Origin: Lachnospiraceae bacterium
GTDB lineage: Bacteria > Bacillota > Clostridia > Lachnospirales > Lachnospiraceae
Direction of reading: 5' to 3'
Length of the DNA stretch: 64,000 nt
Assembly: GCA_017518185.1 (NCBI GenBank)
Contig: JAFWWB010000037.1
Location: forward strand, 13,486 to 77,485
Numbering within the stretch: the stretch's first letter is position 1; every line of letters begins with the position of its first letter. The notes beneath the pieces are model-generated. The model ran no database searches, was not told the DNA's origin, and saw only the letters and a list, made by a program, of their open reading frames with translations. Positions 10,762 through 63,092 of the stretch are shown here, in pieces. Position numbers and translations under genes: made by a program.

Positions 10762-10884
10762 AGATTCCTCGACTCCACTCACTTCGTTCGTTCCGCTCGG
10801 AATGACATATTGGTGATCACTTCGTTCGTTCCGCTCAGAATGACATATTGGTGATCACTTCGTTCGTTCCGCTCGGAATGACAT
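10762..10884. repeat. REP-like palindrome plus about 2.8 tandem copies of a 38-bp unit
   Basis: Head AGATTCCTCGAC at 10762; unit TCACTTCGTTCGTTCCGCTCGGAATGACATATTGGTGA starts at 10779, 10817, 10855. Confidence 0.9.
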
Positions 10885-35891: not shown

Positions 35892-36073
35892 GCTCATTCC
35901 TCCTTACGCATGTATGAAACGATTATATATGTACGGGGTTAGATCGGACGCTACATCAAGAATTTTTTCTGATACAATGTCTTTACACCTGCAAGGCGAT
36001 TATACTACAGGATAATTTGATTTGTAAAGAGAAAAAAATGAGGACAGGTTATGATCCTGTCCTCAGAAAAAAC

Positions 36074-36406
36074 AAGAGGGACTGTAAGCCGGGTTCTGTC
36101 TCGGATGATCATCTATCTATGCCCTGCGTTGCCGCAGGGCTAAAGCGGCCTACCCGGGAGCCCGCCGGGCCAACGCATCGCTCCCGTATTTGGCCTTGCT
36201 TCGGATGGGGTTTACATGTGCCTCCCGCATCACTGCGGAAGCGGTGGTCTCTTACACCGCCATTTCACCCTTACCTCTTTCGAGGCGGTATCATTTCTGC
36301 TGCACTTTCCTTGGAGTCGCCTCCACCGGACGTTATCCGGCATCCTGCCCTGTGAAGCCCGGACTTTCCTCGTGCGCCGAAGCGCCCGCGATCATCTGTC
36401 CCTCTT
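36074..36406 (-). ncRNA. rnpB: RNase P RNA (type A)
   Basis: Minus strand contains GAGGAAAGTCCGGGC near the 5' end and ACAGAACCCGGCTTA near the 3' end; P1 pairing GAGGGAC/GTCCCTC. Confidence 0.95.
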
Positions 36407-36439
36407 GAATATTAAACTATAGCGCTTTCCCTTTGCGCC

Positions 36440-52571: not shown

Positions 52572-53969
52572 TTATACGGAGCATCTTTCGGCAGCCGCTT
52601 TGACCGCTGCTGCGTATACTTCTCCGAAGCCGGCCCCCTTCTCTTGCGCCAAAGCCGCCACGCTTTCGTATTCAGGGTAGCATCTCTCCACACCGAAGCC
52701 GCTGCAGCGCTTGACCTTTATGCTGCCAAACTCAGTCTCCACAGAGTCTTCTCTTCTCTCAAGGACGCTCCGTTCCATCCTCTGTTTCCTTAATCCTATT
52801 GTCGTGGTCTCTCTGAAGATGATCCTCTCGATCTCATCCAGATGCCCGTCATCCGTTATCACGCTGAGCATTATTCCCGGCCTGTTCTTTTTCATATATA
52901 CCGGTGTATGGAACACATCCCTTGCCCCGGCTTCCATAAGCCGCTCCATTGCGTACGCCGCCTGCTCACCGCTGCAGTCATCTATATTGCATTCAAGCTT
53001 CCATATCGTATCGGAGTTTTTTTCTTCCTCAGTTTCGAAGAGCACGGCCCTGACTATGCTCGGGATCTCATAATTACGCTTTCCGGCGCCCATCCCCGTA
53101 CCCAGCACACTCATTGTTTCCGGCAGGATCTCAGAAGTCATTACCGCTGCCGCAAGGGCAGCTCCTGTAGGAGTTACCAGCTCTCCCTTCCTGGTACTTA
53201 CGGAAAGAGGCAGCCTGTGTGCCTCCGCTATGTTAAGCACCGCCGGCACCGGTACCGGCAGTATACCATGGGCACAGCGCACACTGCCGCAGCCTTCGCG
53301 TATGGATGGGATCACGACCCTGTCAACGTCAAGATCGTCAAAGCATACCGCTGCGGCGACTATATCCACTATTGAATCGATCGCCCCCACCTCATGGAAA
53401 TGAACGGTCTCCGGCGTAGCTCCGTGGGCCTTTGCCTCTGCCTCCGCCAGTATCCGGAAGGTCTTCAGCGCCAGGGCTCTTGCGCCCTCGGTCATGTCCA
53501 GCTTCTCTATTATGGCCGTGACCTCTTCCAGCCCCCTGTGCTCATGGTGGTGGTGATGTTCATGCCCGTGTTCATGCTCATGGTCATGCTCATGTTCGTG
53601 ATGATGATCATGCTCATGATGATGCTCATGCCCATTCTCTGTCATCCCGAGCGCAGTCGAGGGATCTTTCTCATGCCCGTCTTCATGCTCATGATGATGC
53701 TCATGGTCATGTATCTCCATCCGCTCATGACCATAAAGATATTCCATGTCATGATCGTGGTTCTCATGCTCTTTATCCGTGATCACATTGAAGTCGCAAC
53801 AGTCCAGCCCGCTCTTTTTAACCCTTGTTATCTCTACGGAAAAAGCCTTGTCCTCTATCCCGGCCAGCGCTCTTTCAAGCTTTTTCCTGTCGGCGCCAAG
53901 GTCCAGAAGTGCCGCCACGGTCATATCTCCGCTTATACCGCTCTCACACTGCAGATAGAGTCCTCTCAT
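52572..53969 (-). CDS. larC: Nickel-pincer cofactor biosynthesis nickel-insertion protein LarC
   Basis: SGISGDM, HFHEVGAIDSIVDI, GELVTPTGAA, ETTTIGLR, PEYES; His-rich linker. Confidence 0.95.
   Translation of the reverse strand: MRGLYLQCESGISGDMTVAALLDLGADRKKLERALAGIEDKAFSVEITRVKKSGLDCCDFNVITDKEHENHDHDMEYLYGHERMEIHDHEHHHEHEDGHEKDPSTALGMTENGHEHHHEHDHHHEHEHDHEHEHGHEHHHHHEHRGLEEVTAIIEKLDMTEGARALALKTFRILAEAEAKAHGATPETVHFHEVGAIDSIVDIVAAAVCFDDLDVDRVVIPSIREGCGSVRCAHGILPVPVPAVLNIAEAHRLPLSVSTRKGELVTPTGAALAAAVMTSEILPETMSVLGTGMGAGKRNYEIPSIVRAVLFETEEEKNSDTIWKLECNIDDCSGEQAAYAMERLMEAGARDVFHTPVYMKKNRPGIMLSVITDDGHLDEIERIIFRETTTIGLRKQRMERSVLERREDSVETEFGSIKVKRCSGFGVERCYPEYESVAALAQEKGAGFGEVYAAAVKAAAERCSV
53640..53667. 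repeat. 28-bp REP-like palindrome inserted inside larC
   Basis: TGTCATCCCGAGCGCAGTCGAGGGATCT matches the reverse complement of 62907-62934 at 27 of 28 positions; flanked by TTCTC on both sides. Confidence 0.9.
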
Positions 53970-62890: not shown

Positions 62891-62906
62891 AGTATCCTCC
62901 TTATTA

Positions 62907-63092
62907 AGATCCCTCGACTTCGCTCGGGATGACATCGTGGTTGTCACTGCGTTCCTTCCGCTCGGGATGACATCTTGGTTGTCACTGCGTTCCTTCCGCT
63001 CGGGATGACATCGTGGTTGTCACTGCGTTCCTTCCGCTCGGGATGACATCCGTATTTGTCATTCCGAGCGAGCAAAGCGAGTCGAGGAATCT
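62907..63092. repeat. REP-like composite: forward REP, about 3.4 tandem 38-bp units, inverted REP
   Basis: CGCTCGGGATGACATC starts at 62921, 62959, 62997, 63035; inverted TGTCATTCCGAGCG...GTCGAGGAATCT at 63057-63092. Confidence 0.92.

Follow-up and report, generated by a model that had tools for sequence, protein, structure and literature searches.

Palindromic repeats with a CGTC tag form one class of the repetitive extragenic palindromes (REPs) of bacteria. Families CGTC-1 to -4 have been described, and they include dRS3 of Neisseria as well as RPE-4 and RPE-6 of Rickettsia conorii (Di Nocera, De Gregorio & Rocco 2013, PMC3733652). In these repeats the tag is often TGTC, with CCTC also accepted; the stem starts with A-T pairs, is 8-9 bp long and encloses a loop of 4-5 nt, and a short unpaired tail follows. 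They occur mostly as head-to-head dimers close downstream of open reading frames (ORFs), no dedicated transposase has been found for them, and many REPs have been argued to be transcribed (PMC3733652). Here, we analyse a short hairpin repeat that lies inside the larC gene of a free-living gut or rumen bacterium of the family Lachnospiraceae (Bacillota), within a stretch of 64,000 nucleotides hereafter called the window. We argue that the extra 33-36 nt in this gene are probably one copy of a small non-autonomous hairpin repeat of the CGTC/TGTC-tagged REP class, alias the Ssn-related motifs (SRMs), which is the class of Neisseria dRS3/NTS and Rickettsia RPE-4/6.

Two further strands of earlier work bear on this repeat. 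Intragenic, in-frame copies of CGTC and GTAG REPs are known in several species, one of them in the DnaE gene of R. conorii (PMC3733652), and the Rickettsia palindromic elements (RPEs) have been described as 'selfish DNA in protein-coding genes' (Ogata et al., as summarised in PMC3733652). More recently, SsnA, a single-domain GIY-YIG protein of 94 aa (family cd10448), was reported to bind the Neisseria NTS (CGTCATTCCCGCG..GCGGGAATC) and related SRMs in single-stranded DNA and to cleave a few nucleotides to their 5′ side (Chenal et al. 2025, PMC11893778). Neisseria SsnA accepts single-stranded DNA but not RNA as its substrate, both cutting and binding depend critically on the C that follows the palindrome and on the three bases that precede it, and ssnA genes are typically flanked by their own motif (PMC11893778).

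The window corresponds to C15:13486-77485 of the host assembly, G000 (3.33 Mb, 92 contigs, 99.8% complete); contig positions are given below in the same form. The host's place in Lachnospiraceae is supported by the relatives of its LarC. The features of the larC locus, in window coordinates, are:

52572-53969, minus strand: larC, the gene for the nickel-pincer cofactor nickel-insertion protein, 465 aa, assigned by a full-length PF01969 match (E = 2e-136), by homologues and by solved LarC structures.
53544-53768, minus strand: the His/Asp/Glu-rich linker of LarC (residues 68-142), with the insertion at residues 100-110; variable in length and without counterpart in structure 12bi.
53640-53668, plus strand: the hairpin repeat copy in larC, consisting of a T, the 26-nt core GTCATCCCGAGCGCAGTCGAGGGATC (53641-53666) and a TT tail.
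53635-53639, no strand assigned: the left TTCTC, taken for a target duplication in an earlier reading of the DNA from its letters alone (hereafter the sequence-only reading); on the gene strand it is part of E111-N112.
53668-53672, no strand assigned: the right TTCTC, whose first T (53668) doubles as the second T in the YT tail of the element consensus.

Between 53635 and 53672 the window reads ...catgcccaTTCTC-TGTCATCCCGAGCGCAGTCGAGGGATCT-TTCTCatgcccg..., with TGTCATCCCGAGCGCAGTCGAGGGATCT at 53640-53667. When up to three mismatches are allowed, the window has just two matching sites, that at 53640-53667 (plus strand) and one at 62907-62934 (minus strand) with 1 mismatch in 28, and the number expected in shuffled sequence is zero; the 28-bp element and its 27 of 28 identity to the second copy, as proposed in the sequence-only reading, are thus borne out. 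The tagged (GTCAT) strand is antisense to larC, and the core GTCATCCCGAGCGCAGTCGAGGGATC is identical to two other copies in G000, at C49:19862 and C60:13261. On the gene strand, the 33 nt from 53640 to 53672 read GAG AAA GAT CCC TCG ACT GCG CTC GGG ATG ACA and are translated as E100-K-D-P-S-T-A-L-G-M-T110 in the middle of the His/Asp/Glu linker. This peptide is absent from all 19 best aligned LarC homologues (54-63% identity). The claim that an in-frame insertion has added EKDPSTALGMT to the His-rich linker also stands. The linker is strongly variable in length across 20 homologues. For the solved LarC 12bi the alignment covers residues 3-67 and 143-459 only, and the whole linker (68-142), which has no counterpart there, is therefore dispensable for the fold. 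The effect on LarC is probably a neutral addition of 11-12 residues to a disordered metal-binding linker. The insertion is also present in two further metagenome assemblies (ENA) with identical protein and 99.95-100% identity over 4 kb, and is therefore not an assembly artefact.

The larC copy belongs, as the sequence-only reading had proposed, to a dispersed family, with about 121 complete copies in G000 that share conserved ends and a covarying stem. Copies were collected by a pattern-based search (strict set, n = 96; permissive set, n = 121), an independent genome-wide scan gave 88, and reversed-pattern controls gave 0 matches. The consensus is T-GTCATYCCGAGCG-[variable, 0-20 nt]-(A)GTCGAGGRATC-YT, in which the variable middle usually forms a hairpin of its own. 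Elements are 29-49 nt in size, with core lengths of 26 nt (15 copies), 34 nt (14), 36 nt (17), 40 nt (6), 44 nt (46), 45 nt (11) and 46 nt (6). The ends are sharply defined: a T stands directly 5′ of GTCAT in 119 of the 121 copies and GTC is essentially invariant, while after GATC the first position is T in 96 copies (C in 21) and the second is T in 113. No Rfam family matched the repeats at gathering thresholds. A literature search with the literal sequence returned nothing relevant, and no paper on such repeats in Lachnospiraceae was found.

In the predicted stem, five outer Watson-Crick pairs are followed by a tandem G.A step and then by two further pairs, with a T bulged out; the apex is closed by a GNA triloop or by a nested hairpin of 8-20 nt, and the unpaired positions are recurrent 5′-GA-3′/5′-GA-3′ steps. 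Across the outer and inner helices of the 44-nt class (n = 46), 91% of cells are paired, as against 24-41% when the 3′ partners are slid. Ten of the 13 pairs have changed on both sides (for example ATCCC/GGGAT, ATTCC/GGAAT and ATCCT/AGGAT), a degree of covariation reached by 0 of 500 shuffles, and the pairs A7-T46 and T8-A45 are invariant in all 46 copies. The predicted DNA folding energy of the element is no better than that of shuffles; energies are unremarkable because standard DNA parameters give GA steps and GNA loops no credit. The predicted hairpin is accordingly supported by comparative evidence, namely covariation, and not by thermodynamic prediction. What the sequence-only reading called a palindrome thus holds good as a covarying hairpin, but its plain Watson-Crick pairing is weak.

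The larC insertion is one of many. An open-frame scan of G000, followed by checks of the candidates, placed at least 24 copies in frame within 12 genuine genes, an intragenic share of at least 20%, in agreement with the proposal that the repeat can write new peptide into proteins. The genes encode LarC, DnaE, MoaA, FtsK, a GH5 enzyme, a GNAT protein and six secreted or surface proteins, and Pfam confirms those for GH5, FtsK, GNAT, the S8 and C1 peptidases and the DUF285 protein as real. In MoaA, which has four copies, the distance between two blocks is 117 residues, against 42 in the solved protein; in DnaE, 45 residues stand in place of the 4 in the solved polymerase III alpha subunit. Copies lie directly before the alpha domain in FtsK, in the N-terminal linker of the GH5 cellulase lipoprotein and, in a GNAT-acyltransferase fusion, inside the GNAT domain itself. 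Glu/Asp/Ser-rich N-terminal linkers hold the copies of three giant secreted proteins (C42, C82, C87), of the S8 and C1 peptidases and of a DUF285/LRR protein. Overall, the in-frame copies occupy disordered linkers or loops at the surface that homologues lack. They occur in both orientations and use five reading frames (VIPSE.., xSxRAxRS.., CHPERS.., DPST..LGMT/..ARDD and RSLD..), each of which is stop-free in 65-99% of copies, whereas the sixth always meets TGA (A-TGA-CA). Long frames spanning copies in C46, C50, C69 and C85 were rejected as spurious antisense ORFs, and a hit at C77:9119, in an FtsX-type permease, was set aside as a chance match with two mismatches.

Across the genome, most copies follow closely on genes, and many form head-to-head pairs. 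Close pairs are head-to-head in 20 cases and tail-to-tail in 2 (p = 1e-4). An open frame of at least 100 codons (a crude gene call) ends no more than 40 nt upstream of 57 of the 121 copies, which stand in both orientations (40 versus 17). Many complete copies are preceded directly upstream by 1-4 tandem units with a period of 19-47 bp, each made of the 5′ part of the element and its own 5′ flank. This architecture, which we call head stutter, is seen at dozens of copies across G000. Further features of the family in the window are:

62906-62934, minus strand: an intergenic copy with a 26-nt core (62908-62933), immediately before the ribosome-binding site of the minus-strand gene that follows.
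62934-63047, minus strand: a head-stutter array of three 38-bp units directly 5′ of this complete copy, each unit consisting of the left arm GTCATCCCGAGCG and 25 nt.
63058-63091, plus strand: a copy with the 34-nt core GTCATTCCGAGCGAGCAAAGCGAGTCGAGGAATC, in a head-to-head pair with the 62908 copy and its array.
10763-10882, minus strand (C15:24248-24367): a copy with a 44-nt core (10763-10806) and two 38-bp head-stutter units (10807-10882).

Exact 13-nt left arms number 189 in G000 and exact right arms 94; there are 102 left arms without a right arm and 9 right arms without a left arm. Within genes, the same architecture gives rise to the repeated peptides VIPSEGSAAAST, CHPERSAEALT and VIPTxANADASS in GH5, DnaE and FtsK. 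The insert in DnaE (C60:42144-45812), of about 40 residues, consists of two head-stutter units and one copy in the loop before the helix-hairpin-helix region. Head stutter is found in the sister species G001 too, for instance as GTCATCCTGAGCG followed by 10 nt and a complete copy. A different composite occurs twice on another contig (C60:27770-27850 and C60:28380-28470), each time right after the stop codon of a gene: a 26-nt copy sits in the loop of an oppositely oriented copy of the 36-nt type, and the inner copy is flanked by a perfect 7-bp inverted repeat (ATCCCGT/ACGGGAT). Elsewhere, the window contains an ordinary bacterial class A RNase P RNA at 36069-36407 on the minus strand (RF00010, 320 bits).

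A search of G000 with PF01541 yielded three GIY-YIG genes: UvrC, a UPF0213-like gene and a 93-aa ORF. The last of these, a single-domain gene at C60:28475-28753 (64.8 bits), begins with an ATG that overlaps the stop codon of the gene before it, which encodes a glycosyltransferase and is part of a polysaccharide-synthesis cluster. The 93-aa ORF is markedly AT-rich relative to its neighbours and looks like a recent acquisition. Three copies of the repeat (C60:28406, 28259 and 27796), two of them within nested composites, lie 45-680 bp downstream of it, while the UPF0213-like gene (C75:16082-16315) has no copies nearby. The sequence-only reading had assumed an unidentified helper enzyme; the 93-aa protein now provides a candidate Ssn-like nuclease, although a transposase role is not known for it.

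The gene and the repeat also co-occur across genomes. In a sample of 400 genomes of the phylum, homologues of the 93-aa protein comprise nine close ones (53-67% identity, E ≤ 2e-27) and a weak, UPF0213-like class at about 35% identity. The repeat is present in 9 of 9 genomes with a close homologue and in 28 of the 400 overall (Fisher p = 1e-11). In eight of the nine, repeats lie within 20-400 bp of the GIY-YIG gene, in three of these on both sides, and one genome has 16 copies within 1.4 kb of it. Of 24 species of the genus, 22 have 0-1 copies. The variant seen in G000 is specific to its species, as is the expansion, which would suit the recent mobility proposed in the sequence-only reading. 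The congeneric genome G001 encodes a GIY-YIG homologue of 63% identity and has 284 copies of a different variant, GTCATCCTGAGCGAAGCGAAGGATC. The bulged-T variant typical of G000 (..AGTCGAGGGATC) was also found in 2-4 copies on each of five viral contigs of IMG/VR (L095-L099). No Ssn-like gene was present in the stretches of these contigs that were examined, and the contigs may be misclassified pieces of host DNA or may serve as vehicles by which the repeat spreads.

How does this repeat compare with the described systems? With the CGTC REPs it shares an unpaired terminal tag (TGTC), an A-T start to the stem, a short unpaired tail, a predominance of head-to-head pairs, positions near ORF 3′ ends, the lack of a RAYT and in-frame intragenic copies, DnaE included. 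It differs from them in its tail (C-TT, not CCA), in its host, in its high intragenic share and in its widespread head-stutter tandem arrays. With NTS and the SRMs it shares a GTCAT head, an AT..AT stem followed by an invariant C, and a distribution in which some species have hundreds of copies and sister species none; the key positions of SRMs, namely GTC and the C that follows ..GRAT, show little or no variation in G000. The SsnA system is further matched by an approximately 94-aa single-domain GIY-YIG gene beside copies and by a motif variant that shifts along with the protein variant. NTS is rarely intragenic (2% in N. meningitidis), whereas the G000 repeat commonly is. Like RPEs, it is a palindromic repeat found in frame in many unrelated genes, essential ones included, and read as extra peptide in regions that tolerate it; RPE-1, however, is about 100-150 bp long as against 29-49 nt, and Rickettsia is an obligate intracellular alphaproteobacterium. 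The sequence-only reading held such insertions to be mainly known from Rickettsia, which is too narrow given the intragenic CGTC and GTAG REPs catalogued in several species (PMC3733652).

The 5-bp repeat around the larC copy invites a different explanation, adopted in the sequence-only reading: a miniature transposon inserted through a staggered double-strand cut, with TTCTC as its target duplication. The enzyme would then be of DDE type or similar. TTCTC is indeed present on both sides, but it overlaps the element's tail and is not shown to exceed chance. Judged at the boundaries of that reading, a 5-bp repeat flanks only 2 of the 121 copies, and for most the flanking match is 0-1 bp. The genome-wide distribution equals that of a control in which the 5′ flank of one copy is paired with the 3′ flank of another, and shifting the boundary by any offset from 0 to 4 changes nothing. 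At the boundaries of that reading, flank repeats of at least 4 bp are slightly commoner than in this control (5 versus 1.5), a point in favour of the staggered cut. On the GTCAT strand, both flanks are rich in pyrimidines, in genic as in intergenic copies, which raises the chance of short matches. The second TTCTC-flanked copy, with a 36-nt core at C82:1674-1709, lies in a gene unrelated to larC. That both positives have the same sequence speaks for context or a longer copied unit, not for duplication of arbitrary targets, and at C82:1674 the element and its duplication would add 43 nt, not a multiple of three, yet the gene stays in frame. An element of the 28-nt type with a constant 5-bp duplication should leave surviving genic copies with core lengths of 3n+2; instead, lengths of 3n are enriched in genes (12 of 24 versus 17 of 97 elsewhere; Fisher p = 0.0017) and 3n+2 is if anything depleted (9 of 24 versus 55 of 97). 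Finally, the TT belongs to the element's consensus. A fixed-length 5-bp target duplication is therefore not supported as a general rule, and we regard transposition by a staggered cut as very unlikely.

Other explanations fare no better, with one partial exception. Movement as a classical REP or REPIN by a RAYT, the HUH tyrosine transposase of IS200/IS605 type, would account for short tagged hairpins in inverted doublets downstream of genes without target duplication. It is hardly credible here, since PF01797 had no match in G000 while control genomes gave matches, and since the tag is TGTC and not GTAG; for CGTC REPs as a class, too, the search by Di Nocera et al. ended without a dedicated transposase (PMC3733652). 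The linked GIY-YIG gene that the sequence-only reading had suggested looking for does lie next to copies. It is next to impossible that DPSTALGMT is a native piece of LarC whose likeness to the repeat is accidental. The high variability of the linker among homologues speaks for such a coincidence, but the 27 of 28 match, the identity of the core to two other copies and the absence of the peptide from homologues refute it for practical purposes. The partial exception holds that the repeats are primarily RNA elements, acting as 3′-end stabilisers or terminator-like hairpins and selected in transcripts, with intragenic copies incidental and the GIY-YIG link indirect. The concentration of copies downstream of long open frames, the covarying pairing and the argument that many REPs are transcribed (PMC3733652) all fit. 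Against this account, copies stand in both orientations downstream of genes, where an asymmetrically tagged RNA hairpin should prefer one; the G.A steps and GNA triloops bring no predicted stability; Neisseria SsnA acts on single-stranded DNA and not RNA (PMC11893778); and the spread of copies is left unexplained. We consider this account unlikely as the primary one, though it is compatible with membership of the CGTC/SRM class.

Several observations weigh against the assignment to the CGTC/SRM class and against the nuclease as its partner. The SRM pattern HGTCWYN(0-2)YYVSBRHN(0-5)WNVSBRGN(0-2)RNCYNB matches 0 of the 121 copies; its head (HGTCWY) and tail (RNCYNB) fit, and it fails because of the G.A step in the stem. 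This step and the bulged T also set the stem apart from CGTC families 1-4, as do the GNA triloop or nested second hairpin in place of a loop of 4-5 nt. For the 93-aa protein, NCBIfam gave no family and the best PDB relatives are UPF0213 proteins with weak E-values; its assignment to cd10448 (Ssn) is tentative. Roughly half of the genomes with several repeat copies have no close homologue, and in the congeneric G020 (83% complete), whose expansion of the GTCATCCTGAGCGAAGCGAAGGATC variant is independent of that in G001, 67 copies were counted and no homologue was detected. The larC and C82:1674 copies share flanking hexamers (ATTCTC-T...T-TTCTC), of which about 0.05 would be expected and 2 are seen; our model leaves this unexplained. 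We know of no Ssn enzyme demonstrated to mobilise or duplicate its own motif, and of no published work on how CGTC/SRM repeats move.

The exact extent of the insertion is a related matter. The sequence GGGCATGAG is found on both sides of the larC copy, and the repetitive His/Glu codons allow several alternative 'duplications' to be drawn. The linker's only Lys and Asn residues are exactly at the two junctions of the insert, and a 36-nt insert between two GHE codon triplets is equally tidy. The boundaries can therefore not be fixed from this sequence alone, and an empty-site allele that would define them did not emerge: the best LarC relatives among 5.8 billion proteins are about 60% identical, species-representative genomes are no closer, and both further assemblies with identical LarC are filled. 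Two scans of JGI metagenomes recovered neither the filled nor the empty allele and are uninformative.

We nevertheless favour the CGTC/SRM class for the repeat in larC. The association of gene and repeat is the signature described for pairs of Ssn proteins and SRMs; from it we infer the family membership and the activity of the 93-aa protein, and only infer them, because several repeat-rich genomes are without a close homologue. On this explanation the repeat would be recognised as a single-stranded DNA hairpin by the candidate Ssn-like nuclease and would spread at a single-strand stage. New copies, and the tandem duplications of the left arm plus its 5′ flank, may arise in repair or replication at hairpins, after which selection would purge intragenic copies save those that preserve the frame in tolerant segments such as the His-rich linker of LarC. 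The flanking TTCTC would then reflect the element's own T-rich tail and a pyrimidine-rich, low-complexity context, with no target duplication of fixed length.

The asymmetry between left and right arms is suggestive, being in line with activity at the head, and duplications that start a few bases 5′ of the head are what cut-and-slip at the SsnA cleavage position might be expected to produce. One can speculate further that hairpin and nuclease together act as an active mutational device, in which cutting of single-stranded DNA close to the 5′ side of the GTCAT head and slipped or templated repair would generate new copies, left-arm arrays and, continually, new low-complexity peptide in the linkers of surface proteins and in loops of essential enzymes such as DnaE, MoaA, FtsK and LarC, with the ATTCTC/TTCTC flanks as its footprint. 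We hold this extension to be doubtful.

REP- and RPE-type repeats that are translated inside genes were already known, as was the CGTC/SRM class. New are the host lineage, a distinct stem design missed by the published pattern, an intragenic share that is unusually high, and the head-stutter arrays. The phenomenon of selfish hairpin repeats translated in genes is thereby extended to free-living gut or rumen Lachnospiraceae, and is linked, through a candidate member, to the recently described Ssn family of single-stranded-DNA nucleases. With about 121 copies, at least 24 of them intragenic, with abundant half-element tandem arrays and with sister species that have zero copies or another variant, G000 offers a natural data set on how CGTC/SRM-type repeats spread, and the 93-aa GIY-YIG protein and its repeat provide a concrete pair of enzyme and motif for biochemistry.

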